Source of the DNA: a virus
Taxonomy: Duplodnaviria > Heunggongvirae > Uroviricota > Caudoviricetes
Strand: one strand, 5' to 3'
IMG/VR virus record: IMGVR_UViG_2703718869_000008
Location: 1-10,500 of that record
Length of the DNA stretch: 10,500 bases
Shown: piece after piece, positions 1-10,500 of the stretch
How positions within the stretch are numbered: the first letter of the stretch is position 1
How the letters are laid out: every line of letters begins with the position of its first letter
Translations under genes and position numbers: made by a program
The notes under the pieces: generated by a model
Seen by the model: only the letters and a program-made list of their open reading frames with translations
What the model was told of the DNA's origin: nothing
Database searches by the model: none

Positions 1-239
1 CGTCCATATTTCTTTCCCATCCAGGCGTTATCACCAACACGCTCAAGATGCGGAGGGTCGAATATAACCATCGAAAAAGATGCGTCTGCAAATGGTAGTG
101 CACGAAAATCAGCTATCAGATCAGGACTGATAATCAGGCGTCGTCCATCACACAATGTGTGCTCTTCCTTTCTGATATCGCTAAATATCGCCCGGTCGTC
201 ATTCTTATCGAACCAGAACATGCGACTGCCACAGCACAT
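1..239 (-). CDS. Putative SAM-dependent (DNA) methyltransferase, N-terminal fragment; ORF is open to the left window edge
   Basis: Hand translation of the minus strand from ATG (plus 237-239) gives MCCGSRMFWFDKNDDRAIFSDIRKEEHTLCDGRRLIISPDLIADFRALPFADASFSMVIFDPPHLERVGDNAWMGKKYG with no stop before position 1. The LP-x-x-S-x-x-x-VIFDPPH segment resembles motif IV (DPPY-type) of beta-class N6A/N4C methyltransferases. Absent from the ORF track because it has no stop in the window. Start is uncertain (ATG at 239 or 221; no strong RBS). Confidence 0.45.
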   Translation of the reverse strand, partial: MCCGSRMFWFDKNDDRAIFSDIRKEEHTLCDGRRLIISPDLIADFRALPFADASFSMVIFDPPHLERVGDNAWMGKKYG

Positions 240-262
240 GTCGAGGATTGCTGCATGTCCAG

Positions 263-613
263 TCACTGGCTGCCTCCTTTGCGAAGCCGTTCCGCCCATT
301 CTTCAAGGGATTTCTCTGCATATTCACCGGACAGGCCATCAATCGGATGCGATTCATTAGCTAACTCTTCTTTTGCTGACAGAATCATGCGTGTAACGTC
401 GAAAACTTCAGCCAAAGGCTTATTGATAAATCCGTGATTGAAAGCAGCAGCAAGACGGCTTGCGGTATAGTTAATACCCTCGTTGCGAGCCTCAGCACGT
501 ACTTCATCGAATTTACGCACCAGATACTCAGCATTTGTTTCATTCACTTTCAGATCTCGCGGTACACATTTCCCGCGAAGAAACCCTTCCATTTCGAAAA
601 CATTCATGCGCAT
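263..613 (-). CDS. Hypothetical protein, last gene of the leftward early cluster (positional equivalent of yfdS)
   Basis: 116-aa ORF whose start overlaps the stop of the upstream HD-domain gene by 10 nt, suggesting co-transcription and coupling. No recognisable motif. Confidence 0.6.
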   Translation of the reverse strand: MRMNVFEMEGFLRGKCVPRDLKVNETNAEYLVRKFDEVRAEARNEGINYTASRLAAAFNHGFINKPLAEVFDVTRMILSAKEELANESHPIDGLSGEYAEKSLEEWAERLRKGGSQ

Positions 614-1140
614 TTGTGTAACTCCGATAACTCGTTAAAACGTTCCATAAACATCCCGTAGGCATGGCTAGGTGCCAGTGGAATCACGTTGAACATCTCT
701 GTTGCCGGGATGCCTTCCAGTACAGGCCAGAAAGAGCCATCATCAAGCCCGAGATCGCGGCGTTCGGTTGCCAGCATGATAAGATCGGCATATTTCACGG
801 GCGTACTCATAACTGGGGGTAACCCGTATTTCTCACGGATTACGGCGTCAATTTTTTCTTCCATCCGTTTATAGTCAGGAAGAAGGCGTTTCAGTGGAGC
901 GGGGATGTCCTGGCAATACGCTTCTGTTGCATCATGCATTAATGCTTCAAAAGCAAATTCCTGCGGTACCAGCTGGCTGCAAAGAACCGCATGTTGGGCG
1001 ACGCTGTAGAAGTGCGAAAGATGACCGGCAAAGCGACAGATATTTGAAAGGGAAACCGCGATATCGTTAATATCGATGTCGTCTTTATTTATCCTGTCAT
1101 AATAAAAATGCTTCCCGGAAAAAGTTTTAATAAATGACAT
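604..1140 (-). CDS. yfdR: HD-domain metal-dependent phosphohydrolase (YfbR/YfdR-like 5'-nucleotidase family)
   Basis: Track ORF 604..1167 starts at GTG; the internal ATG at 1140 is preceded by GGAGAA-N5 and gives 178 aa (MSFIKTF...). H...HD motif (SVAQHAVL...LMHDATEAY) is typical of HD phosphohydrolases. Size and position after a 274-aa gene match the K-12 CPS-53 yfdQ-yfdR arrangement; the symbol is assigned from synteny and size, not from a search. Confidence 0.78.
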   Translation of the reverse strand: MSFIKTFSGKHFYYDRINKDDIDINDIAVSLSNICRFAGHLSHFYSVAQHAVLCSQLVPQEFAFEALMHDATEAYCQDIPAPLKRLLPDYKRMEEKIDAVIREKYGLPPVMSTPVKYADLIMLATERRDLGLDDGSFWPVLEGIPATEMFNVIPLAPSHAYGMFMERFNELSELHKCA

Positions 1141-1233
1141 TTTGTTCTCCACGTATATGCGCTGCACCGCGCTGAATTCTGGTAAAAAGAATCCCTCACC
1201 ATCCGGCGATTATTGAGTAAATTACGTTTCCAT

Positions 1234-1255
1234 AAATGCCCCCTCAGGGGCATTT
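1234..1255 (-). other. Perfect palindromic hairpin AAATGCCCC-CTCA-GGGGCATTT in the yfdQ-yfdR intergenic spacer (possible attenuator or RNA-processing/stability element)
   Basis: Seen directly: 9-bp perfect stem with 4-nt loop, 12 nt downstream of the yfdQ-like stop on the transcribed minus strand. No clean U-tract follows, so it is not called a terminator. Confidence 0.35.
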
Positions 1256-1267
1256 GCAGTAATGAAA

Positions 1268-2092
1268 TCAGGCGGTGAAAGTACCAATAAAGGTTTCTAC
1301 TTTGCTGTCCTTGAATTTCTCAACAAGCAGATCACGAAATTCGTTAGCCATTTCTTCCTGCACCGCCTCCAGCTGAATAATGCGCAGAACCAGTACCGGA
1401 CGATCGCCAGTGATAATGCTGAGGCGTAATTTAAACGGACGTTCTTTCAGACCTTCAAACGGAATGCATTTAAATTCAAATGCCACTGGCATAATGTCTT
1501 TGGTCTTCGCTTCGACAGACTCCATCAGGGAGCGTTTGCCGCTGAAGTCATTATCTTCAAAATCAGCGGTCTGGTTTGCTTCAATCGTGATTTTACGGAC
1601 CGCCGCAGCCGCTTTTGTTGCCTGAATGGTGTCACCATTAGCATCAAAGCCCACAAGGTAGTCGGCCCAGTCTTCAATCCATTCTGCCAGTGATTTCTGG
1701 GAGTTACGCTCGCCATTAACAGACAACAGAGCAGAGAACGGTGCTGTCTTTTTCAGTTTGAGAGTGGCGGTGTTATCTGCGTGACCTGGTTCATCAATAG
1801 TACCCAGGTTAAGCACACTGACGGCACGCATATTATCAGCATCAATAAAGCAGCGGGTGCCTTCATCTGCAAGATCTTTAGAATAACGGGTAAAGTCATC
1901 GATGCTGGCAGTGGAAAGAGCACCACGGAAACGGAAGCGATTTAAATTAAATTTTTCCAGATCATGAATGCGGAAATTCTCAGGCAATGCCACAGCATCG
2001 GCACCAATCTTACTGATAATTTCATTAACACCCTGAGCAGAAATAAGGGCATGGATTTGATTAATTGCGGTTGCGTCTAAGTTCTGAGACAT
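1268..2092 (-). CDS. yfdQ: YfdQ-like protein (DUF2303 family), function unknown
   Basis: 274-aa ORF, the same length as K-12 YfdQ, with GAGGA-N7-ATG RBS and the same order P-Q-R as the CPS-53 cluster. Family assignment is from memory and synteny, not a search. Confidence 0.75.
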
Positions 2093-2157
2093 AATAAGTC
2101 CTCACTATATAAGGATATTCAGTGATGAGATAAATAATCAGTTAATTAAGAACGATA

Positions 2158-2520
2158 TTAATGACCTGCTGCGCGGAGTTTTCCGTCAGGTTCACCGGCA
2201 AGAGTCAGTAATTGTCCCTGGTCTTCCTGCAGAATAGTCAGGCGACCACCGCGATTGACATACATCGGCGTTTCGGTGGTGTCTTCTTCGGAAATTTTCC
2301 CGCGGTTAGTCGGGCGAACATATGAGAGTTTGTGTTTGATTTTCACACGGTTCTCATCAAATGGTTCGATTTCCAGGTTGAGTGAGACCTTACCTTTGGT
2401 TTTCGTGTTCATCACACCTGAAGCGACTTCACTGAGAACTGCGCCGATTTTGGTTTCAAATACGCCGCCGTCCAGCTCCCCGATAAATGCCTGCACATCA
2501 GTACTGCGTTCGCTAGCCAT
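2158..2520 (-). CDS. yfdP: YfdP-like small early protein (120 aa), function unknown
   Basis: Track ORF 2158..2706 has an unlikely 62-codon N-terminal extension across the structured leader. The internal ATG at 2520 is preceded by GAGGAG-N7 and gives MASERSTDVQ..., 120 aa, matching K-12 YfdP size and position. Symbol is from synteny only. Confidence 0.65.
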   Translation of the reverse strand: MASERSTDVQAFIGELDGGVFETKIGAVLSEVASGVMNTKTKGKVSLNLEIEPFDENRVKIKHKLSYVRPTNRGKISEEDTTETPMYVNRGGRLTILQEDQGQLLTLAGEPDGKLRAAGH

Positions 2521-2568
2521 TTTGCTGCTCCTCATCATATCGACCCTGCAAGGTCGGTTGGTTTCTCC

Positions 2569-2657
2569 ACAAAACAGAGAAGAACACCTGCGGTGGCAGC
2601 CGCCCGGATGGATTGGGTTATGAGCCCGTCGTCCGGTGATGCTCTTCTCTGTTTTGT
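2569..2657 (-). repeat. Long-range perfect 15-bp inverted repeat (ACAAAACAGAGAAGA / TCTTCTCTGTTTTGT) with 59-nt spacer in the leader upstream of the yfdP-like gene
   Basis: Seen directly: arms at 2569-2583 and 2643-2657 are exact reverse complements. The spacer contains a further small GC stem (GCGG...CCGC). Confidence 0.6.
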
Positions 2658-2703
2658 AAAAAGAGCGGTACCAGCCGGAAGCAAGTGTACAAACTGGTAC
2701 CGC
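2656..2703 (-). terminator. Terminator-like hairpin (10-bp perfect stem GCGGTACCAG/CTGGTACCGC, 19-nt loop) followed on the minus strand by UCUUUUUAC
   Basis: Seen directly: plus 2665-2674 and 2694-2703 are exact reverse complements, and a T-tract follows in the minus-strand sense. The loop is long for a classical intrinsic terminator. It lies between the N-position HTH gene and the yfdP-like gene (tL1-like position). Confidence 0.4.
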
Positions 2704-2934
2704 CAAAGCAGTGGCTGTTGTGGTGACCGGTGCTGATCTCCGGCTTGCGGTTATTTCAGACTCTCACGGGCGTTTAATTACCCCGCCGAACAGCTCTTTT
2801 CCGCAATAGCTGCAATGTCTTTCGCGCATCAGCCTGCGCATTCACCACAACGCTAAGGATTCTCTCTGGTTGAAAATACTTAGCTGTTATGTGCCTGCTT
2901 TTAGCCACATCAGGCGAGGTGGTAGGTACGTGAG

Positions 2935-3303
2935 CTACTTGGTGGTATTTGCCTTCGATGAGGCAAGATAGGCATCAAGATCACTTTTTAGGTAAATAAC
3001 CTTTCTACCGATTTTTAAAAAAGGTATTCGAACTTTTCCTGTGCTAGCCCAATTAGCTAAGGTTTGCGCTTCTACGCCGATATAGGCTGCGGCGTCTTCT
3101 CTATTCATTTTTTCATGTTGTTCTGACAGAATACTCGTTGCTTCAAAATCAAAGCCCAGCTTTTCAAAGGCATAGATAATAGAGCCCAAAGCCATTTGTT
3201 TAACTGTTCTGTAGTTACTGCTTTCAACTTGGCTTAATGCAGTTTTTGCTGCTTCAATCACCACAAGCCAGGCATCTCGTTGGTTGTCGATACTGCCATC
3301 CAT
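2935..3303 (-). CDS. Helix-turn-helix DNA-binding protein (Xis/AlpA/MerR-like HTH in C-terminal half), first gene of the leftward early operon
   Basis: ATG at 3303 preceded by AGGAGA-N6 (track start GTG at 3309 abuts the RBS). C-terminal segment AAAYIGVEAQTLANWASTGKVRIPFLKIGRKVIYLKSDLDAYL resembles small excisionase-type HTH domains. Low-GC gene, unlike lambda N (not Arg-rich). Confidence 0.65.
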   Translation of the reverse strand: MDGSIDNQRDAWLVVIEAAKTALSQVESSNYRTVKQMALGSIIYAFEKLGFDFEATSILSEQHEKMNREDAAAYIGVEAQTLANWASTGKVRIPFLKIGRKVIYLKSDLDAYLASSKANTTK

Positions 3304-3361
3304 ATTCACTCTCCTGCCATGTGCGAATCATCCGGTCATTCATACGCCACCGTCGGCTACT

Positions 3362-3420
3362 TCGTGGGCGTCCTGCCTGTTCGTTATCTTTGATATAAAA
3401 TCTAACTTAACTTAGTTTTG
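3362..3420 (-). promoter_or_regulatory. Putative leftward early promoter/operator (pL/oL-like) with CTTAGTT-core operator-like palindromes
   Basis: AT-rich spacer between cI and the next leftward gene. Contains AACTTAGTT (3409-3417), sharing its core with palindromes in the cI-cro intergenic region; CTTAGTT recurs at 3446-3452. Promoter hexamers not confidently assigned. Confidence 0.4.
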
Positions 3421-3425
3421 ATGGC

Positions 3426-3462
3426 AAGAGAAAACACCAAACTTTTCTTAGTTCGGTGTTTT
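3426..3462 (-). terminator. Putative rho-independent terminator immediately downstream of cI (stem AAAACACCGAAC/GUUUGGUGUUUU with one G-U, 8-nt loop, U-rich 3' side)
   Basis: Seen directly: plus 3431-3442 and 3451-3462 are near-perfect reverse complements. On the minus-strand transcript the stem is followed by CUCUU. Lies 19 nt after the cI stop. Confidence 0.45.
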
Positions 3463-3480
3463 GGTTAGAGAAAAGGGGGG

Positions 3481-4107
3481 CTAGAGTTCGTATTGAACTC
3501 CTTTGACTACACCAATGATGAGGCAATTACCATTGATCGGGATGTTGGGGTACCGGGGATTTAATGGCACTAAAAACTTTTGAGGGCCATCGATAACTAA
3601 TTTTTTTACTGTGGCTTCGTTTGTTCCATCAAGTCTAGCGATGACTATTTTTCCATGCCGGGGTTCTGCATCAGGATCTACAATCACTGTTGCGCCTTCT
3701 GGTATTGTTGGGAGGCCGTTAGGGTTAGTCATGGAGTCGCCTTTAACCTCCAATGCAAATGAGTTATCACCAATCTTTAATGATGTATCTACCCACTTGT
3801 CTACTTCACTAAACACTTCTGCTGTCCTGCACTCAGTAAACTGCCCAGCCTGAACCCACGAGATTACAGGAACTCTGCGCATGTTTGTGACGAGTTTGCC
3901 TTCAAACTCCGCACCATAAAGAATGTAATCTATTGACGTATTGAAGAACTTCGCTAATTTTGAAAGTGCTTCCCCTCCAGGGACATTGATGTCTTTCTCC
4001 CAGTACCCCACAGCAACGTCACTTACTCCACAAAATTTACCCAATTCTTTCTGGGACGTTCTGGTAACTCTTCTCAGAGCTTTTATACGCTGACCAACCG
4101 TTTCCAT
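3481..4107 (-). CDS. cI: Phage CI-type repressor (N-terminal XRE-family HTH plus C-terminal S24 LexA-like autopeptidase domain)
   Basis: 208 aa. N-terminal HTH (QKELGKFCGVSDVAVGYWE), GDSM serine motif and downstream KK lysine motif typical of RecA-stimulated self-cleaving repressors. Divergent from a cro-like gene. Confidence 0.9.
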   Translation of the reverse strand: METVGQRIKALRRVTRTSQKELGKFCGVSDVAVGYWEKDINVPGGEALSKLAKFFNTSIDYILYGAEFEGKLVTNMRRVPVISWVQAGQFTECRTAEVFSEVDKWVDTSLKIGDNSFALEVKGDSMTNPNGLPTIPEGATVIVDPDAEPRHGKIVIARLDGTNEATVKKLVIDGPQKFLVPLNPRYPNIPINGNCLIIGVVKGVQYEL

Positions 4108-4204
4108 AGGAGCACCATTTCTTTAATTACTAAGTAATCTTAGTTTTTATTGACCTAAGATAGATTGATAATTAACATCTAATAAAACTTAGTTTGGAGG
4201 GCAT
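4108..4204. promoter_or_regulatory. Divergent immunity promoter/operator region (pRM/pR-like) with repeated near-palindromes ATTACTAAGTAAT and AAACTTAGTTT
   Basis: 97-bp AT-rich spacer between divergent cI and cro-like starts. Palindromes at 4126-4138 and 4185-4195 plus CTTAG/CTAAG at 4139-4143 and 4154-4158. Candidate pR: TTGACC (4150-4155), 17-nt spacer, TAACAT (4173-4178). GGAGG RBS 4 nt before the cro ATG. Confidence 0.6.
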
Positions 4205-4405
4205 ATGACGACTGACGATATCGAAAGCTACTTCGGCAGCATTGAGAAAGTTGCTGCTTTTTTCGGCATAACAACTGAAGCCGTTTATCAGTGGCGAAAC
4301 CGTCCTGGCCAGTTAATTCCAAAAGGACGTGCAGCAGAGGCTGCATATAGAACTTGCGGACGGTTGCCATTTAAACCTGAGCTTTATGAAAAATCTAATG
4401 GATAA
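4205..4405 (+). CDS. cro: Cro-like small HTH regulator (Cro/YdaS-type)
   Basis: 66-aa ORF divergent from cI, GGAGG RBS, central HTH-like segment (VAAFFGITTEAVYQWRNR). Position and size match cro. Symbol is positional/functional, not a lambda Cro sequence match. Confidence 0.75.
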   Translation: MTTDDIESYFGSIEKVAAFFGITTEAVYQWRNRPGQLIPKGRAAEAAYRTCGRLPFKPELYEKSNG

Positions 4406-4442
4406 ATCGATTTACAGAAACCACAGATATGAGGGCTTAAAC

Positions 4443-5027
4443 GTGGGTAAAGAACCTGAATGGAAAGTTGATAAGCAACCAGCATGGCTGGTGGCAGCAA
4501 TACGAAGAACGATTGCTGATTTACCTCATGGCTATGAGGAAGCAGCAGAAATTCTTGGTTTGTATAAATCTGATGATATCACCCCAGCAAAAGATCAATT
4601 GCATAACAGACTGCGTAGCGGTGGGGATCAAATTTTTCCACTTGAGTGGGCCATGGTTTTACAGGATGCCAGTGGTACCAGGCATGTAACGGATGCAATA
4701 GCCCGTCGTAGTAATGGGGTGTTTGTGCCGCTGGTGGTCATTGATGACATTGACAATGGTGACATTAATCAGCGGCTGATGGAGTCAATAGAATGGATTG
4801 GCAAGCATTCCCAGTACTTACGCAAGGCAACTGCTGATGGAGTTATTGACCAAGCTGAGCGTGAGCAAATCGAAGAGAACAGCTACCAAGTAATGGCGAA
4901 GTGGCAGGAGCATTTAACACTGTTATTTCGTGTTTTTTGTGCGCCGGAAAAGAGTAACGCCCGCGAGTGTGCAGCTCCGGGCGTCGTGGCGTCGATTGCT
5001 TCTGGTTGTGGAGAAACTAACGCATGA
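4443..5027 (+). CDS. Hypothetical early regulator in the cII position (possibly CII/YdaT-like); start uncertain
   Basis: Track ORF 4329..5027 overlaps cro in another frame. In-frame GTG at 4443 is preceded by GAGGG-N7; alternatives are ATG 4386 or 4398 without a good RBS. Stop overlaps the next start (ATGA). Function inferred only from position. Confidence 0.55.
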   Translation: MGKEPEWKVDKQPAWLVAAIRRTIADLPHGYEEAAEILGLYKSDDITPAKDQLHNRLRSGGDQIFPLEWAMVLQDASGTRHVTDAIARRSNGVFVPLVVIDDIDNGDINQRLMESIEWIGKHSQYLRKATADGVIDQAEREQIEENSYQVMAKWQEHLTLLFRVFCAPEKSNARECAAPGVVASIASGCGETNA

Positions 5028-5860
5028 ACAGTTTAACGGCAAATAACCGTTTGTCGCAACAGCTGGTGTTCAGTGTCGCTGAACACCTGTTGTTACGGCA
5101 TGAATGCAGATTACCAAATCACCTGGCTGTAAGTAACCACAGAGAACTTTACCTGACTGTGGGGGGCGAGTTGTGCTGGAACTTAACCGCTGGTTTCGTG
5201 ACGGAAGAGGGCTTTATGTCCATGTTATTCGTTGGGAGCCAGAAACACAGCGCGTTATCTATCTTCGCAAAGACTACCCGCATGAGTGCTTTAGTCCTTT
5301 GTGGAAATTCAGGCGTGATTTTGTTGAGTGTGAAGGACCACCAGCACATTGATTCTGCCATTCCGGGACGTTACACTGTTCAGGCACCTTATAAAGCGGG
5401 TGTCGGGATTGGCGTCCTGGAATTGCATACGGCGACAATTGGCGCGTTAGCGTCTTTTTTGTTGCTACAACTCAGCTATACCCAAATTATGGTGGGCTGG
5501 GTGGGGGCACCGAAAGGTGCGCCGGTTTCCGTATGCGCCGGTTACGCCAACCCTGCTCAGTTCACCACCAGCGAAATTGGCGTTTCCGGTGGTGGAAGTT
5601 ATCCATTGCATACGGAGGCTGCCATCATGGCTACTGTCCCAGCCCTCTCTCGTCTGAATGATGAAGACTTACATAAACTCAGTTATGTAACAACTGCACT
5701 ACGTGCTCTGCGCAAGGTAACTCTTTCGGATCCGCAGGCGCATCAGGTTTTGGTAGAAACCCTTCTTAACTTGCAGGCTGAACGTATTCGTCTGGCGGAT
5801 AAGGCTAATTTTCATATTCACCGTCTCCTGAATATCAGCGGAGGGCATCGTCATGCTTAA
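5024..5860 (+). CDS. Hypothetical protein (278 aa), unknown function
   Basis: Long stop-free frame; ATGA overlap with the upstream gene and ATGCTTAA overlap with the downstream gene. C-terminal 75 aa look clearly protein-like, but the middle is compositionally odd and an alternative frame is also open (see findings). Confidence 0.5.
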   Translation: MNSLTANNRLSQQLVFSVAEHLLLRHECRLPNHLAVSNHRELYLTVGGELCWNLTAGFVTEEGFMSMLFVGSQKHSALSIFAKTTRMSALVLCGNSGVILLSVKDHQHIDSAIPGRYTVQAPYKAGVGIGVLELHTATIGALASFLLLQLSYTQIMVGWVGAPKGAPVSVCAGYANPAQFTTSEIGVSGGGSYPLHTEAAIMATVPALSRLNDEDLHKLSYVTTALRALRKVTLSDPQAHQVLVETLLNLQAERIRLADKANFHIHRLLNISGGHRHA

Positions 5861-6089
5861 TCCGTTGATCCTCAATATTTGCCGTTTGCTTCAGCGTAAA
5901 AAAACATCAATTCCTACAGTTGGGCAGTGGTACACCACGCCTGCAGGGCATGTTCTACGTGTCAGCCTGGTTGACCGTGAATGTCAGAAGGTGATTTGTG
6001 AACCGCTGGGCCGTAATTACCGCGTCAGTATGCCGCTTATAGCCTTTCGCTCCGGAAAAAACATGAAGCATCTCGGAGGTGCAGCATGA
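5853..6089 (+). CDS. Hypothetical small protein (78 aa)
   Basis: GGAGGG-N7-ATG RBS and translational coupling on both sides (overlaps upstream stop; ATGA overlap with the initiator gene). Confidence 0.6.
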   Translation: MLNPLILNICRLLQRKKTSIPTVGQWYTTPAGHVLRVSLVDRECQKVICEPLGRNYRVSMPLIAFRSGKNMKHLGGAA

Positions 6090-6904
6090 GTATGGAGCTG
6101 ATGGTTAAAGCGATGAAAATTCGAGTGGGTAATCCATTGCGAAAACTGGTTCTGATCAAGCTGGCTGATAATGCCAGCGATCAGGGTGAGTGCTGGCCCA
6201 GCTACCAGCATATTGCTGACCAGTGCGAGATTAGCAAACGTTCTGTGATGAATCATATTGCGGCCCTTTGTGATTCCGGGCTGGTAAAAAAAGTCACCCG
6301 GAAAGGTGAAAAAGGTAACTCAAGTAATATCTATCTCCTTCATCTTGATGGTGCAGGAGATTCACTAGGGGGTAGTGCAAATAATTCACTATCTAGTGCA
6401 GCAAATTCACCAGGTAGTGCAGGAGTTGCACCAGGGGGTGGTGCAGGAGATTCACCCAGAACCAGTCACTCTTTTGAACCAGTCAAAGAACCAGTCAATG
6501 AACCAATAGCTGTTGGTGCATCTGCTGATGAGTCCGTGCGAGTTCGTTCAAACCGACCGGAATACTCTCCGGAGTTTGAGCAGGCATGGCTGGCATACCC
6601 CAAACGTGCTGGTGGCAATTCAAAATCTGCAGCCTTCAAAGCCTGGAAAGCTCGTTTGAATGAGGGGGTAAAACCCGAAACCATGCTGGAAGGTGTGAAA
6701 CGCTACGCGGGCTGGGTATCTGCGATGGGTAACAGCGGCACACAATTTGTGAAACAGGCTGTCACGTTCTTTGGTCCGGATCGTCATTTCGAAGAATCCT
6801 GGGAAGTTCCTGCGGTATCTGCAGCCAGACGCGAGGACCCGTACTTCAAAGCCAGTTACGACAACGTGGACTACAGCCAGATCCCGGCAGGATTCAGGGG
6901 GTGA
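6086..6904 (+). CDS. Phage replication initiator (lambda O-like organisation: N-terminal HTH, internal iteron-encoded Gly/Ser/Ala linker, C-terminal domain)
   Basis: GGAGG-N7-ATG. N-terminal HTH segment (LVLIKLADNASDQGECWPSYQHIADQCEISKRSVMNHIAALCDSGLV) typical of phage replication initiators. The middle of the gene carries tandem iterons, as in lambda O. Not the lambda O sequence itself. Confidence 0.72.
   Translation: MSMELMVKAMKIRVGNPLRKLVLIKLADNASDQGECWPSYQHIADQCEISKRSVMNHIAALCDSGLVKKVTRKGEKGNSSNIYLLHLDGAGDSLGGSANNSLSSAANSPGSAGVAPGGGAGDSPRTSHSFEPVKEPVNEPIAVGASADESVRVRSNRPEYSPEFEQAWLAYPKRAGGNSKSAAFKAWKARLNEGVKPETMLEGVKRYAGWVSAMGNSGTQFVKQAVTFFGPDRHFEESWEVPAVSAARREDPYFKASYDNVDYSQIPAGFRG
6347..6506 (+). 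repeat. Putative replication origin: five 15-bp iterons GTGCA-N5-T(T/G)CAC at 21-24 bp spacing, then three to four GAACCAGTCA repeats
   Basis: Seen directly: iterons start at 6351, 6375, 6396, 6417 and 6441 (first and fifth identical: GTGCAGGAGATTCAC). GAACCAGTCA occurs at 6459, 6476 and 6488 with a degenerate copy at 6500. Located inside the initiator gene, analogous to ori-lambda within O. Confidence 0.55.
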
Positions 6905-6906
6905 TC

Positions 6907-7395
6907 ATGAGTCTTTTGAATGAAGTTCAGAAATTCATTGAAGCCCATCCGGGGTGTACTTCCGGAGACATTGCGGATGCTTTTGCAGGTTACTCACGGC
7001 AGCGCGTTCTGCAGTCAGCAAGCAAGTTACGTCAGAGTGGGCGTGTGGCTCACCGTTGTGAAGGAGATACACGCAGACATTTCCCGCGCCTGACTGAGAG
7101 AGCGCAGGAACCGGAACCACAACCAGTTCGAGAAACCAGACCTGTGCGCAATTTCTATGTCGGCACTAACGATCCACGGGTGATTTTGTGCCTGACCCGC
7201 CAGGCTGAAGAACTGGAGTCCAGGGGCTTATACCGTCGTGCTGCAACCGTGTGGATGGCGGCATTCCGTGAAAGCCACTCCCAGCCAGAACAAAACAATT
7301 TTCTGGCGCGTCGTGAGCGGTGCTTACGGAAAAGCAGCAAGCGCGCTGCATCGGGTGAAGAGTGGTATCTGTCAGGGAATTACGTGGGGGCTTAA
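6907..7395 (+). CDS. Putative PerC/Pch-family transcriptional regulator with extra N-terminal domain
   Basis: GGGGG-N5-ATG at 6907 (track start GTG 6901 overlaps the upstream stop). C-terminal AEELESRGLYRRAATVWMAAF resembles the PerC signature (LE-x-GL-W/Y-RRAA-x-W) as recalled. Stop overlaps the next start (TAATG). Family assignment is tentative. Confidence 0.5.
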   Translation: MSLLNEVQKFIEAHPGCTSGDIADAFAGYSRQRVLQSASKLRQSGRVAHRCEGDTRRHFPRLTERAQEPEPQPVRETRPVRNFYVGTNDPRVILCLTRQAEELESRGLYRRAATVWMAAFRESHSQPEQNNFLARRERCLRKSSKRAASGEEWYLSGNYVGA

Positions 7396-8048
7396 TGAGT
7401 AATAAATATTGCCAGGCGCTGGTGGAACTGCGGAACAAACCAGCCCATGAACTGAAGGAAGTGGGCGATCAGTGGCGCACGCCGGACAACATTTTCTGGG
7501 GAATTAACACCCTGTTTGGCCCGTTTGTTCTGGATCTGTTTACTGACGGTGATAACGCCAAATGTGCCGCGTATTACACGGCGGAAGATAACGCGCTGGC
7601 GCATGACTGGTCAGAACGTCTTGCGGAGCTTAAAGGTGCTGCCTTTGGTAATCCCCCATACAGCCGCGCCAGTCAGCATGAGGGGAAATACATCACTGGC
7701 ATGCGTTACATCATGAAGCATGCCAGTGCCATGCGTGATAAAGGCGGGCGCTATGTTTTCCTGATCAAAGCTGCCACCAGCGAAGTGTGGTGGCCGGAAG
7801 ATGCAGATCATATTACTTTTATTCGCGGGCGTATTGGTTTTGAACTGCCTGTCTGGTTTATCCCGAAAGACGAGAAGCAGGTACCGACAGGAGCTTTTTT
7901 CGCTGGTGCTATTGCTGTTTTTGACAAGACCTGGAAGGGACCGGCAATCAGCTACATTGGGCGCGATGAACTTGAGGCATGTGGTGAGGCGTTTCTGGCG
8001 CAGGTTCGCCAGCAGGCGGAAAAACTGGTCAGGGAGATGGCTGCATGA
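7395..8048 (+). CDS. Phage-type DNA N6-adenine methyltransferase (Dam family), orphan
   Basis: GGGGG-N4-ATG at 7395 (track ORF starts upstream at 7362 in the same frame). Motifs WRTPD, FVLDLFTD and catalytic NPPYS are characteristic of the phage Dam family. No adjacent restriction endonuclease gene. Confidence 0.85.
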   Translation: MSNKYCQALVELRNKPAHELKEVGDQWRTPDNIFWGINTLFGPFVLDLFTDGDNAKCAAYYTAEDNALAHDWSERLAELKGAAFGNPPYSRASQHEGKYITGMRYIMKHASAMRDKGGRYVFLIKAATSEVWWPEDADHITFIRGRIGFELPVWFIPKDEKQVPTGAFFAGAIAVFDKTWKGPAISYIGRDELEACGEAFLAQVRQQAEKLVREMAA

Positions 8049-8371
8049 CGACATTAACTCAATGCCAGCAGCAGGTGCTGGATATGCTGATTTCTTATCA
8101 GAAAGAGCGTGGCTTTCCGCCAACCAATCAGGAGGTGGCAACCATGCTGGGATACCGTTCAGTGAATGCAGCGGTAGAGCATCTTCGCGCACTGGAGAAA
8201 AAAGGCGTCATCACGATAAAGCGTGGCGTGGCCCGGGGGATAACGCTTCATACCGCGGTGAAGGACGACGACAGCGAGGCGGTCGGGATTATCCACTCAC
8301 TGCTTGCCGGTGAGGAAAACGCAAGGCTGCGTGCAACCCACTGGTTACATGAGAGGGGCCTGAAAGTATGA
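8045..8371 (+). CDS. LexA N-terminal DNA-binding-domain homolog lacking the S24 peptidase/cleavage domain
   Basis: 108 aa. N-terminal ~70 aa align closely with E. coli LexA residues 1-70 as recalled (MTTLTQCQQQVLDMLISYQKERGFPPTNQEVATMLGYRSVNAAVEHLRALEKKGVI vs [56 protein letters not shown]). Recognition-helix residues NAA-EHL are conserved; there is no Ala-Gly cleavage site or Ser/Lys dyad. ATGA overlaps on both sides. Confidence 0.8.
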   Translation: MTTLTQCQQQVLDMLISYQKERGFPPTNQEVATMLGYRSVNAAVEHLRALEKKGVITIKRGVARGITLHTAVKDDDSEAVGIIHSLLAGEENARLRATHWLHERGLKV

Positions 8372-8763
8372 AGCTGATCCTGCCTTTTCCGCCCAGCGTG
8401 AACACGTACTGGCGACACCCCAACAAAGGGGCGTTTGCTGGTAAGAGCCTGATAAGCGCGGCGGGGCGCAAATTCCAGAGCGCGGCGTGTGCAGCAATAG
8501 TTGAGCAGTTACGTCGTCTGCCAAAACCAACGTCGGCACCTGCATCAGTGGAGATCGTGTTGTTTCCTCCGGATAACCGGATCCGCGATCTGGACAACTA
8601 TAACAAGGCGCTGTTTGACGCCCTGACCCACGCGGGTGTGTGGGAAGACGACAGTCAGGTGAAAAGAATGCTGGTGGAGTGGGGACCGGTTATCCCGGAA
8701 GGGAAGGTCGAGATCACTATCAGTAAGTACGAAAAAGCGAGTTGCAAATTAGCAACTCGGTAA
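8368..8763 (+). CDS. rusA: RusA-family Holliday junction resolvase
   Basis: 131 aa. N-terminal LPFPPSVNTYWRH and central DLDNYNKALFDALTHAGVWEDDSQV match the RusA pattern (PWPPS-N-YYR, DLDN-K---DALT-AG-W-DD-QV). Typical nin-region position. Confidence 0.88.
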   Translation: MKLILPFPPSVNTYWRHPNKGAFAGKSLISAAGRKFQSAACAAIVEQLRRLPKPTSAPASVEIVLFPPDNRIRDLDNYNKALFDALTHAGVWEDDSQVKRMLVEWGPVIPEGKVEITISKYEKASCKLATR

Positions 8764-8808
8764 CGGAATTGAGCAACACCCTAAATTTGGGTATTACCTC
8801 GTTAAAGA

Positions 8809-8828
8809 TACTGTATTTATGAACAGTG
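8809..8828 (+). promoter_or_regulatory. Canonical LexA (SOS) box TACTGTATTTATGAACAGTG upstream of the KilA-N gene
   Basis: Seen directly: CTGT-N8-ACAG with AT-rich spacer, close to consensus TACTGTATATATATACAGTA. Lies about 87 nt upstream of the KilA-N start in an AT-rich intergenic region that presumably holds its promoter. Confidence 0.6.
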
Positions 8829-8914
8829 TATCCTTGATAACTATTAAAAATCGCAGTAAGTTCATCTTGCATCAACGAAAAGGGAGTGCAGTCCCGAAAT
8901 TTGTGGAGAAACCA

Positions 8915-9730
8915 ATGAATCAGTTGCTTGTAATTGATGGCGTTTCTGTGCGCCAGTACTTTGAATCTAACTACTGTCTTAACGACCTTCAGAAAGCTGC
9001 TCTTCTTGCCGCTGGTGAGAATCGCTCCTCCCGTTCGCTGGAAGTTCACGAGTTTATGCGTCGTCCTGAAACGAAGGCTCTTGTGGAATTACTGGAAGAA
9101 GAAACTACGGGAGATTCCCGTAGTATTCCTGTCATCACCATTCAGGGGCGCAATGGTGGGACGTATGTCTGTAAAGAGCTGGTCTATGCATATGCAATGT
9201 GGATCAGCCCGGCATTCAGCTTAAAAGTGATACGTACTTTTGATGCGCTTCATAATTCATCACCAGAAGAAACCACATCCGACAAAATTAAATCCGGGGT
9301 CATTCTGCTTGAATCAGCAGCAAAGACTCTAAATCTGTCAAACTCCTCGAAACTTGGTGCATACCAGAAATTATCAAAGGTAGCTGGTCTTCCTGAACTT
9401 ATGCCGATCTATGCCATTGATGCACCTGCTGATGCGCCAGATGGTTCAAGCCGCCCTACGCTGTCGCTGAGTGCACTGCTGAAGCAGTATGGTATCCGCC
9501 TGACGGCTAATCAGGCATATCACCAGATGGTGAAGCTGGGGATCGTCGAGCAGCGCGAACGATACAGCCGTACCGGGATTAACAACATCAAAAAATTCTG
9601 GTCGCTGACGGCGAAAGGCTGCATGTTCGGCAAGAACATCACCAGTCCCGCAAATCCGCGCGAGACGCAGCCGCATTTCTTCGAATCCCGATTCCCTGAG
9701 CTGTTAAAGCTGCTCGATACCGTTCATTGA
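8915..9730 (+). CDS. KilA-N domain protein (candidate SOS-inducible antirepressor or Kil-like factor)
   Basis: ATG at 8915 with GGAGAA-N5 (track start 8819 lies inside the SOS box and is unlikely). N-terminal region (VSVRQYFESNYCLNDLQKAA...GRNGGTYVCKELVYAYAMWISPAFSLKVIRTFDAL) fits the KilA-N pattern. Gene is lower in GC than its neighbours (moron-like). Confidence 0.75.
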   Translation: MNQLLVIDGVSVRQYFESNYCLNDLQKAALLAAGENRSSRSLEVHEFMRRPETKALVELLEEETTGDSRSIPVITIQGRNGGTYVCKELVYAYAMWISPAFSLKVIRTFDALHNSSPEETTSDKIKSGVILLESAAKTLNLSNSSKLGAYQKLSKVAGLPELMPIYAIDAPADAPDGSSRPTLSLSALLKQYGIRLTANQAYHQMVKLGIVEQRERYSRTGINNIKKFWSLTAKGCMFGKNITSPANPRETQPHFFESRFPELLKLLDTVH

Positions 9731-9737
9731 GGTGACC

Positions 9738-10500
9738 GTGAGAGCACTACTGACCCCTGAAATTGCCCCGCGTATGGGGATCGTATTGTTCAGGCCAGGT
9801 TCAGAGCTGATGCCCCTGTTTATGCAGGGGCGTGTCCTGCTGGAGCCTGAGCCGGAACGTTATTCATCTTTCGCTAGTGGTGCCGTTCCGGCGGCATCAC
9901 AACCGCTGGCGGATGATCCTTCCGTTCGGGCCGTGTTCCGCAATGAGGCAGTGATCCGTCGTGCTGGTGGCGTGGAATGTCTTGAAAGCTGGTTACTTCG
10001 TGAAAAAGGCTGCCAGTGGCTTCATTCCGACTGGCACAGCGAGAACATGACCACAATGCGACACGCTCCGGGTGCAATCCGTCTGTGCTGGCACTGCGAT
10101 AACCAGCTGCGCGATCAGTTCACGGAACGGCTGGAATCAATGGCAACGGATAACTGTGCCCGCTGGGTGTTGTCTGTTGTGCGTCGGGATCTCGGTTTTG
10201 ATGACAGTCACGTTGTGACAATGCCGGAACTGTGCTGGTGGCTGATTCGTAATGACCTGGCGGATGCCTTACCGGAAAGTGCAGCCCGTAAGGCACTGAG
10301 ATTACCGAAGCCTGTTGTGCCGTCTGTCACCCGGGAAAGTGACCTTGTGCCTTCGGTTCCTGCCACCAGCATCATCCAGGATAAAGCGAAAAAGGTGCTG
10401 GCGCTGAAAGTGGATCCGGAGTCGCCGGAGTCTTTTATGTTACGCACCAAACGTCGCCGCTGGGTTAATGAAAAGTACACGCGCTGGGTTAAGACGCAGC
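9738..10500 (+). CDS. Cys/His-rich hypothetical protein, partial (possibly DUF968-like); ORF continues past the right window edge
   Basis: Hand translation from GTG 9738 (GAGGT-N4-GTG) is stop-free to the window end: VRALLTPEIAPRMGIV...CQWLHSDWH...CWHCDNQ...MLRTKRRRWVNEKYTRWVKTQ. Absent from the ORF track because it has no stop. DUF968 assignment is from memory of a similar RRRW-x-NEKYT-x-WV segment; low certainty. Confidence 0.5.
   Translation, partial: MRALLTPEIAPRMGIVLFRPGSELMPLFMQGRVLLEPEPERYSSFASGAVPAASQPLADDPSVRAVFRNEAVIRRAGGVECLESWLLREKGCQWLHSDWHSENMTTMRHAPGAIRLCWHCDNQLRDQFTERLESMATDNCARWVLSVVRRDLGFDDSHVVTMPELCWWLIRNDLADALPESAARKALRLPKPVVPSVTRESDLVPSVPATSIIQDKAKKVLALKVDPESPESFMLRTKRRRWVNEKYTRWVKTQ

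Follow-up and report, generated by a model that had tools for sequence, protein, structure and literature searches.

The stretch analysed here (the window) is a 10,500-nt segment of Caudoviricetes DNA (IMG/VR record IMGVR_UViG_2703718869_000008, positions 1 to 10,500) in which a 414-nt spacer (2521–2934) separates the gene in the N position from yfdP, raising the question of what occupies a spacer of this length. A preliminary description, made from the sequence alone, took the spacer for a single structured leader and proposed that readthrough into yfdP, yfdQ, and yfdR may depend on an RNA-based mechanism, a processive antitermination element, or a small RNA (sRNA). Our analysis reveals that several conserved RNA modules, all on the minus strand, make the spacer a mosaic rather than a single leader. 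The modules most probably make up two units: the gene for sRNA-17, comprising a scaffold and a terminator, and the 5′ untranslated region (UTR) of yfdP, comprising element B, hairpin C, and a ribosome-binding site (Table 1). Structures, conservation, covariation, the identity of sRNA-17, and the spread of its family are observed directly in the sequences compared here, and expression, RNA ends, and the effect of deletion are taken from the literature.

The sequence features on which the preliminary description was built are all present on the minus strand. In particular, a 10-bp perfect hairpin, in which GCGGUACCAG (2694–2703) pairs with CUGGUACCGC (2665–2674) around a 19-nt loop, is followed by UCUUUUUAC; a 15-bp perfect inverted repeat has its arms (2643–2657 and 2569–2583) 59 nt apart and lengthens to 25-nt arms (2633–2657 and 2569–2593) with 84% complementarity; and the boxA-like string CGCUCUUUUUACAA lies at 2654–2667. 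The region is also as highly structured as had been supposed: the minimum free energy (MFE) of a 441-nt region is −167.5 kcal/mol, as compared to −134.7 ± 6.1 kcal/mol in shuffles (z = −5.3), and 0 of 100 shuffles are as low. A third, larger structure, absent from the preliminary description, is present at 2717–2851. The interval 2521–2934 is without annotation in the RefSeq record of an identical E. coli chromosome (strain E2863).

The hairpin and the larger structure belong to a published RNA. sRNA-17 is a 193-nt RNA of E. coli K1 RS218, mapped by 5′ and 3′ rapid amplification of cDNA ends (RACE) and confirmed by Northern blot; it is encoded immediately upstream of yfdP within a prophage of mEp460 type and was stated to be without an Rfam homolog (Front Microbiol 2020;11:574833, PMC7719688). 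The UTI89 row of the supplementary alignment in that paper starts with aaaagagcggtacc, ends with gcgcattcaccacaac, and is the reverse complement of the window from 2851 to 2659. Sequence and both ends match, and the window interval and the published sRNA-17 are the same gene, with a 5′ end GUUGUGGUGAAUG and a 3′ end ...GGUACCGCUCUUUU in the window. Specifically, the 5′ end is the first nucleotide of the closing helix P1 of the larger structure, and the 3′ end falls in the U-tract after the 10-bp hairpin; of the possibilities that the preliminary description had offered, a small RNA is the one that is supported. Among 5426 complete E. coli genomes, 586 carry sRNA-17 at ≥80% coverage, and ~240 plasmid copies contain only its first 136 nt, corresponding to the body minus the terminator. 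In the view of the authors, sRNA-17 is an isolated, ArcA-repressed regulator; the paper makes no mention of a scaffold, loop-loop pairing, a wider family, a relation to STnc100, or a cis effect of the terminator on yfdP (PMC7719688).

The body of sRNA-17, scaffold element Y, is a four-way junction in which helix P1, hairpins HP1 and HP2, and an insert stem are all recovered by the single-sequence MFE fold. We built a covariance model, R1, from 35 members without the insert type of the window and with the sibling element of phage RCS47 in the seed. R1 matches the window at 66.5 bits (E 6e-16; 2718–2850, minus strand) with the full model aligned, and detects no second copy in the window. Across the 76 distinct matches in the R1 alignment, 96.1% of cells are paired, as compared to 81.1% in shuffles and ~29–47% in slid controls, and double changes are present in 18 of 23 pairs, a number equalled in 0 of 500 shuffles. 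By helix, double changes occur in 8 of 8 pairs of P1, 5 of 5 pairs of HP1, and 3 of 5 pairs of HP2. A first core alignment of 112 sequences, in the extraction of which P1 was partly selected for, gives 99.4% of cells paired versus 86.9% in shuffles, with double changes in 13 pairs.

The loops of HP1 and HP2 are complementary, and this loop-loop helix, which lies outside the R1 model, is 97% paired in the R1 alignment and has compensatory changes at 2 of 4 positions (C:G to G:C or U:A, and U:A to C:G). When HP1 loop variants were scanned for without any condition on HP2, GCCGA was found mostly with UCGGC, GUUGA with UCAAC, and GGUGA with UCACC; a few variants (GAUGA and GCUUA) are uncompensated. 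The window carries the exact consensus of both loops. The two structures of the preliminary description, the 10-bp hairpin and the inverted repeat, are likewise maintained with compensatory changes in homologs, and are therefore more than chance folds. Neither the window nor any of 28 diverse member loci has an Rfam 15 family covering the scaffold, either at gathering score or at E ≤ 10. ARAGORN finds no tRNA or tmRNA in the window, and in the window and member loci the Rfam tRNA model matches only true neighbouring tRNAs. Across 196 elements, open reading frames (ORFs) starting at the conserved AUG of AAUGCGC vary at random in length around a median of 19 codons, indicating that the element is not coding.

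The scaffold recurs, with covariation in every helix, in more than 200 distinct phage and prophage sequences across Proteobacteria. An exact 18-mer of HP1 and an exact 20-mer of HP2 are each present in at least 120 IMG/VR contigs, and the 19-mer AATGCGCAGGCTGATGCGC is present in at least 120 species genomes, among them genomes of Gamma-, Beta-, and Alphaproteobacteria, Desulfocarbo, a Geobacteraceae metagenome-assembled genome (MAG), and a small number of MAGs placed in other phyla. Complete elements could be verified in Xanthomonas, Burkholderia, Rhizobium, Pelagibacterium, Geminicoccus, Geobacteraceae, Desulfocarbo, and others. The 161–222 unique elements are 66–457 nt long and share a common plan: P1, of free sequence and 6–23 bp; AAU; HP1, with 5 bp and the loop GGCUGA; an insert of ~20–400 nt; HP2, with 5 bp and the loop AGAUCAGCA; and then directly the 3′ strand of P1. 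An ORF begins within 90 nt downstream of 50 of the 222 elements, and these ORFs belong to many different families; a gene-specific riboswitch was rejected on these grounds, since no consistent downstream gene family is present. A terminator-like site lies downstream of 32 of 153 elements and upstream of 13 of 153.

Blastn against phage genomes splits the spacer into blocks with differing distributions. Block 1 (query 77–219, window 2716–2858) is a 143-nt segment with 97% identity in the P1-like phages RCS47, JL22, and P1, in the Klebsiella siphophage IME207, and in mEp460. Its edges are sharp, fall at helix P1 in unrelated phages, and coincide exactly with a 10-bp inverted repeat, GUUGUGGUGA...UCACCACAAC, within which RCS47 has a compensatory G:C to A:U change. 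The contexts of block 1 differ: in RCS47 it closely follows tRNA-Asn and tRNA-Thr and shares their strand, in IME207 it occupies an unannotated gap, and mEp460 matches the region at 99.4% identity upstream of its own yfdP homolog. Query 210–414 is also present in cdtI and Stx2c phages, and query 272–378 is present at ~85% identity in Salmonella phages.

Three further features of the family concern the ends of the element and its neighbours. Of 190 family contexts, 43 have a helix of ≥10 bp directly against the 5′ side of P1, as compared to 1 of 190 in a shuffled control. In the window, the corresponding hairpin X is a 6-bp remnant that taken alone is at chance level; its sequence shows homology to a 15-bp helix, GGUAAGGGUAUUUUG/CGAAGUACCCUUACC, found ahead of this element in RCS47. 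C and A predominate in the 3′ tail, and 59 of 200 elements have CCA within 6 nt, versus 2–31 for control trinucleotides. Where tRNAs lie within 2 kb of an element, 45 of 48 are on the same strand and 3 on the opposite strand, and a tRNA is inside or ≤200 nt from 20 of 161 elements. The abutting helix, the tail, and the tRNA association would fit excision from longer transcripts and also a tRNA-like shape. In shape only, the scaffold resembles purine riboswitch aptamers and tRNA, having a junction closed by a covarying P1, two hairpins touching through their loops, and a conserved junction AAU; it differs from them in having no consistent downstream gene family, in not being matched by tRNA models, and in having a fourth arm of ~20 to ~400 nt.

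At the same position, SfV, mEp460_4F5, and ST64B carry an interior of STnc100 type between the same flanks and the same P1 arms. These variants score 35–39.5 bits against the Rfam STnc100 model (RF02076), below its gathering threshold of 47, and 18.8–20.6 bits, a weak match, against R1; in the window itself (2300–3100), STnc100 has no match even at E ≤ 10. The Rfam consensus of STnc100 (a P1 ending in GGUG, AAU, a 5′ hairpin, inner stems, a 3′ hairpin on P1, and a terminator) has the same plan as the window element, and STnc100 and PasD, like sRNA-17, are prophage-borne sRNAs of ~200 nt. The hairpin sequences differ, however, the GCUGA/UCAGC loop complementarity is not found in the STnc100 type, and most reports of STnc100 and PasD concern Escherichia, Shigella, and Salmonella, whereas the GGCUGA type spans Proteobacteria. 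By this comparison of sequence and predicted fold, we class the sRNA-17 scaffold as a distant relative of STnc100. STnc100 is reported to be structurally homologous to the Hfq-bound sRNAs PasD1 and PasD2 of enteropathogenic E. coli (bioRxiv 10.64898/2026.05.13.724894), and association with Hfq and base-pairing with mRNA are reported for these relatives (PMC8550237; bioRxiv 10.64898/2026.05.13.724894). PasD is tied to the window element only through STnc100, and a literature search found no paper linking sRNA-17 to STnc100 or PasD.

The 3′ portion of sRNA-17 is an intrinsic terminator, with 7 G-C pairs in its 10-bp stem and the U-run UCUUUUU immediately after it; a simple scanner overlooks it because its loop is 19 nt. 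In related phages, the stem is exchanged yet remains paired: ST64B has GUCGGCGUC/GACGCCGAC, Eeyore has GUGCCCA/UGGGCAC, and the stem of SfV is also unrelated in sequence, such that only the U-run and the ensuing ACA(A/C)AA are constant in the terminator region of the three. Among 98 unique contexts of element B, 90 have a stable hairpin with U-run directly abutting its 5′ arm, and the stems of these hairpins include at least six of unrelated sequence. The boxA-like string does not survive this comparison. Specifically, CGCUC is one version of the covarying 3′ arm of the terminator, with GCUC replaced by GUCC in SfV, GACC in ST64B, and CACC in Eeyore while the opposite arm changes in step, so the likeness to boxA is accidental.

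Deletion of sRNA-17 has been reported to raise RNA-seq reads from 0.49 to 47 for yfdP and from 0 to 8.5 for yfdR (PMC7719688). We infer, as the authors do not, that the ~95-fold rise of yfdP reflects loss of the terminator in cis, and on the strength of this rise we take the terminator to be functional. A discrete terminated RNA whose removal increases yfdP is not what a processive antitermination element would give, and since the "leader" consists of a published sRNA and its terminator, no exotic antitermination device is needed. A segment of the variable arm, AAAAGAGCUGU (2790–2800), is complementary at 10 of 11 positions to the 3′ arm and U-tract of the terminator, ACCGCUCUUUU (2659–2669), and could compete against the terminator hairpin; the complementarity may be due to chance, because P1-like phages and IME207 carry the arm without this terminator.

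The 15-bp inverted repeat, which the preliminary description had joined with the hairpin into one device, is the base of a separate conserved structure of the 5′ UTR, element B. RNAalifold applied to 22 diverse homologs yields 32 pairs, 7 with compensatory changes. The lower stem has 19 consensus pairs and two 1-nt internal loops (arms of 25 nt, 84% complementary, in the window), and the apical sequence CGACGGGCUCAUNNCCCAAUCCANCCGG is invariant, lies next to a variable sub-hairpin, and provides a motif present in at least 120 IMG/VR contigs. Rfam gives no match for element B in the window region and 10 related loci at gathering score or at E ≤ 10. Element B nearly always adjoins the U-tract of the terminator and precedes the first early-left gene, and is followed 3′ by GGAGAA, hairpin C, and the ribosome-binding site of yfdP or another first gene. 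In homologs compared by eye, without a formal count, the stem of hairpin C varies (for example, GGCGG UGGCAG CCGCC) and its loop U(G/U)GCAG is kept; this pattern suggests that the hairpin is bound by a protein or an RNA. A wider query including the composite of terminator and element B together with yfdP matches ~3000 of the 5426 complete E. coli genomes.

Element B is most likely a processing or regulatory site, with RNase III or a sequence-specific partner as the predicted agent. Its stem has a length that would suit RNase III (~20 bp or more of mostly continuous double-stranded RNA). Element B cannot act on the terminator, because it lies downstream of it. A candidate pseudoknot between the apical UCCAU and a downstream GUGGA/AUGGA was rejected, as the variants do not covary. 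The yfdP frame is open for 62 codons upstream of the annotated ATG, crossing element B and the terminator as far as a TTG at 2706 (2158–2706, minus strand); the compensatory pattern of substitutions and a good Shine-Dalgarno sequence at 2528–2533 argue that the open frame is accidental.

Insulating terminators of the timm/tL1 type and RNase III sites in early leaders (the N leader and sib) are features of phage lambda. The arrangement in the window resembles them, in that a terminator parts immunity-side transcription from the early-left genes and a long imperfect stem leads the next gene. It differs from the RNase III leaders of lambda in that element B has an invariant apical sequence and a three-way apical region, neither of which is needed for RNase III.

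Table 1. Features of the spacer and its flanks (window coordinates)
Feature	Position	Strand	Description	Basis
sRNA-17	2659–2851	minus	scaffold body and intrinsic terminator	match to published supplementary alignment (PMC7719688)
Scaffold element Y	2717–2851	minus	sRNA-17 body; four-way junction, 135 nt	model R1, covariation, MFE fold
P1	2843–2851 / 2717–2725	minus	closing helix, 9 bp	
AAU linker	2840–2842	minus		
HP1	2824–2839	minus	5 bp; loop GGCUGA at 2829–2834	
Variable arm	2745–2823	minus	79 nt	
HP2	2726–2744	minus	5 bp; loop AGAUCAGCA at 2731–2739	
Loop-loop pairing	2829–2833 / 2732–2736	minus	GCUGA with UCAGC	
Intrinsic (Rho-independent) terminator	2658–2703	minus	stem 2694–2703 / 2665–2674; U-tract UCUUUUU 2658–2664	sequence, RACE, homologs
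Element B	2569–2657	minus	lower stem ~19–25 bp with two small internal loops; apical CGACGGGCUCAUNNCCCAAUCCANCCGG and variable sub-hairpin	RNAalifold, homologs
Hairpin C	2541–2556	minus	CGACC UUGCAG GGUCG	by-eye comparison of homologs
yfdP Shine-Dalgarno and start	2518–2533	minus	GAGGAG 2528–2533; ATG 2518–2520	sequence; RefSeq of identical locus
Hairpin X	2852–2884	minus	6-bp remnant GCUAAG 2879–2884 / CUUAGC 2852–2857; abuts P1 5′ end	sequence
Gene in N position	2935–3108	minus	57-aa HTH_17 protein, upstream gene; stop at 2935	RefSeq; Pfam PF12728

These elements suggest how the locus may work. In a lysogen, the terminator would halt transcription from the immunity side before yfdP, yfdQ, and yfdR. 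In sRNA-17, P1 joins both ends, and HP1 and HP2, flanking the 79-nt variable arm, are locked by five loop-loop base pairs. The scaffold is a self-contained, horizontally mobile RNA module of many unrelated phages. It would stabilise the RNA, fix its ends, and present the variable arm, which would be the working part; the arm probably acts by base-pairing with mRNA through Hfq, by analogy with STnc100 and PasD. The position of the 5′ end at the first nucleotide of P1, beside an upstream helix, would make processing likelier than a promoter as its origin, with RNase P as the leading candidate. Pointers to processing include the P1-abutting helices, the same-strand tRNAs (45 of 48), the C/A-rich tails, and the lack of a promoter-like site upstream of 2851: a sigma-70 promoter scan of 2852–2934 found none for sRNA-17, and inspection by eye found only a weak GAGAAT −10 element. 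The second unit would serve as the 5′ UTR of yfdP in transcripts that pass the terminator, and element B would determine how stable the early-left mRNA is or how it is translated.

Several points weigh against parts of this explanation. The 5′ end of sRNA-17 may be a transcription start, which RACE does not separate from processing, and the authors place an ArcA-regulated promoter upstream of sRNA-17 (PMC7719688). The rise of yfdP could be an effect in trans rather than loss of the terminator in cis. The functions of scaffold and variable arm are inferred by analogy, Hfq binding and targets being reported for the relatives only. The conservation of the loops, with an exact 19-mer across Proteobacteria, exceeds what a passive scaffold needs and hints at a conserved binding partner. 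Similarly, the invariant apical loops of element B argue for a sequence-specific partner and not just RNase III.

The alternative closest to the preliminary description is that the scaffold is a cis-acting processive antiterminator like HK022 put, which would let pL transcripts reach yfdP, yfdQ, and yfdR without N. Like put, the scaffold is a structured phage RNA in an early operon without lambda N and upstream of terminators. It lies only 13 nt upstream of the terminator, and a put-like role was therefore worth testing. SfV, ST64B, mEp460, and the window share no conserved N-like protein at this position; in the window, the protein there matches Pfam PF12728 (HTH_17; 37.1 bits, E 3.8e-9), in agreement with its earlier assignment as a helix-turn-helix (HTH) rather than an N-type protein. 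Loops conserved across Proteobacteria would be expected if the RNA had a universal binding partner such as RNA polymerase, and terminator-like sites follow the elements more often than they precede them (32 versus 13 of 153). However, the whole scaffold sits inside an RNA that ends at the terminator, and termination occurs right after it; yfdP is near-silent (0.49 reads) with the scaffold present and goes up when the locus is deleted (PMC7719688). Element B, moreover, is downstream of the terminator, and most family members have no terminator following them, many being adjacent to tRNAs, arranged around them, or immediately ahead of ORFs. The 414-nt leader gave chance matches only (E > 1) in blastn-short against HK022 22–34 kb, the immunity region in which the put sites are expected, a comparison by sequence only in which the put sites, not annotated in the record, were not located. 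The put architecture consists of two stem-loops, unlike the scaffold. An antiterminating scaffold is thus improbable, and RNA-based antitermination at this locus is not supported. A lambdoid nut site, with CGCUCUUUUUACAA as boxA and a nearby hairpin as boxB for a protein antiterminator, is very improbable: a loose boxA match exists, and hairpin C, with its conserved loop and covarying stems, is somewhat boxB-like, but it lies ~100 nt from the boxA-like string, which is itself followed by a 25-bp stem and not by a short boxB hairpin. With CGCUC not conserved and changing along with the opposite terminator arm, and with an HTH_17 protein in the N position that is not conserved among related phages, the alignment of homologs brings the nut-site reading close to refuted.

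Two further alternatives concern what the scaffold is, and a third what the spacer encodes. As a rival for the mode of action only, the scaffold might be a tRNA-shaped mimic, cut out by RNase P, that acts as a decoy or hijacker of tRNA-binding host or defence factors. In this mapping, P1 would be the acceptor stem, HP2 the stacked T-arm, HP1 the D-arm, and the loop-loop helix the elbow, with the variable arm in the position of the anticodon arm. Topology and junction lengths fit, the mapped 5′ end coincides precisely with the start of P1, NCCA-like 3′ tails are enriched (59 of 200 versus 2–31 for controls), and the loop sequence is very strongly conserved; the same-strand tRNA association, the arrays after tRNA-Asn and tRNA-Thr in P1-like phages, and the arms that hold a whole tRNA point the same way. 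Nevertheless, neither ARAGORN nor the Rfam tRNA model recognises the element, the loops are unlike D and T loops in sequence and size, P1 and HP2 stack to 12–18 bp or more rather than a fixed 12 bp, a tRNA lies within 200 nt of only 20 of 161 elements, and the window tail is AGCCAC and not NCCA; we consider the tRNA mimic unlikely. A DNA-level mobile element, a cassette resembling a miniature inverted-repeat transposable element or attC with the terminal repeat GTTGTGGTGA...TCACCACAAC and the hairpins as recombination sites, would account for the sharp boundaries exactly at the inverted repeat in unrelated phages, for the interior exchanged between the same arms in SfV-type prophages, and for the very variable interiors. 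It is hard to reconcile with an RNA having exactly these ends (PMC7719688) or with compensatory changes between two hairpin loops, and the P1 arms, which vary freely in sequence while pairing is kept, fit a structure and not a recombinase site. The 45-to-3 strand bias with tRNA genes and a G2744-U2726 wobble possible on the minus strand only also speak against a DNA cassette, no target-site duplication was seen, and the annotation of the four records consulted shows no recombinase next to the element; this reading is very improbable. Small proteins, either a 25-aa ORF at 2764–2841 (MRRLMRERHCSYCGKELFGGVIKRP) or YfdP extended N-terminally from the TTG at 2706, are hardly credible as products of the spacer: the ORFs exist and the AUG of AAUGCGC is conserved in the family, but no Shine-Dalgarno sequence lies at usable spacing, the ORFs of 196 family elements have random lengths with a median of 19 codons, stem substitutions are compensatory and not synonymous, and RefSeq starts yfdP at 2520 with a good Shine-Dalgarno sequence.

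Other candidates were set aside as well. Self-cleaving ribozymes (hammerhead, twister, hepatitis-delta-virus-like, and hatchet) have no Rfam match and an unfitting topology; a new ribozyme class cutting at the 5′ end of P1 could still be envisaged, the RACE end being the one observation behind it. An HNH endonuclease remnant or small peptide, considered for the CxxC in the 25-aa ORF, was rejected since family members do not preserve the ORF and the substitutions are of compensatory type. Retron msr/msd, integron attC, IS200/IS605 ends, and CRISPR-like repeats were rejected on arrangement and on the lack of an adjacent enzyme gene in the few annotated contexts.

For the two-unit reading preferred here, the sRNA itself is already published; what is new is the family-level picture of the scaffold, with its loop-loop helix and hypervariable arm. 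The sRNA-17-type scaffold, with each exact anchor in at least 120 viral contigs and a presence in at least 120 bacterial species, has no Rfam family, and shows clean covariation in four helices including a tertiary loop-loop helix. sRNA-17, STnc100, and, through STnc100, PasD are three separately named prophage sRNAs apparently built on one structural plan, and a conserved frame with a hypervariable arm suggests a route by which phages diversify regulatory RNAs. Also new is the composite of terminator and element B, which is uncatalogued and heads the early-left operon in many enterobacterial prophages, a large group. As for the yfdP and yfdR "targets" published for sRNA-17, they probably reflect read-through caused by deleting the terminator and would then be artefacts.

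A broader proposal is possible but doubtful: the body of sRNA-17 may represent an undescribed, widespread class of phage RNA, a tRNA-shaped cassette excised by RNase P at its P1 end, with a hypervariable 20–400-nt payload arm and a conserved loop-loop elbow that would hold the cassette together and be bound by a universal host factor. If so, binding of that factor would be reflected in the exact 19-mer elbow shared from enterobacteria to Xanthomonas, Burkholderia, Rhizobium, and Geobacter, and scaffold RNAs would serve phages generally in taking over the host or countering its defences. STnc100, PasD, and sRNA-17 would then be the few members noticed so far, the plp/upl region of phage P1 would be an array of them, and the exchangeable payload arm would sometimes be a whole tRNA.

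In RCS47, after tRNA-Asn and tRNA-Thr, the interval 1426–2320 (plus strand) contains an array in which long hairpins (GGUAAGRGCAUU...AGURCYCUUACC) alternate with scaffold elements; some of the hairpins carry a T-arm-like GGGUUCGAAUCCC, one element is of STnc100 type, and the stretch is annotated only as plp/upl coding sequences on the opposite strand. In two elements (IMG/VR contigs L067 and L100), ARAGORN detects a complete tRNA-Pro inside the variable arm, and in a third (contig L091) inspection by eye suggests another tRNA-like sequence, with its 3′ strand entering HP2. HK022 33582–33691, far from the immunity region, gives a borderline R1 match (15.6 bits, E 0.04). A Rhizobium MAG contig of prophage-like character (L385) contains a Proteo-phage-1 RNA (Rfam; 2325–2405, minus strand; 60.4 bits) ~2 kb from its scaffold element. 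Elsewhere in the window, two Rfam families match above gathering score on the plus strand, isrK at 5384–5460 (58.9 bits) and C4 antisense RNA at 5485–5572 (80.7 bits); the two are adjacent, lie inside mechanically listed ORFs, and are present as the same pair in mEp460.

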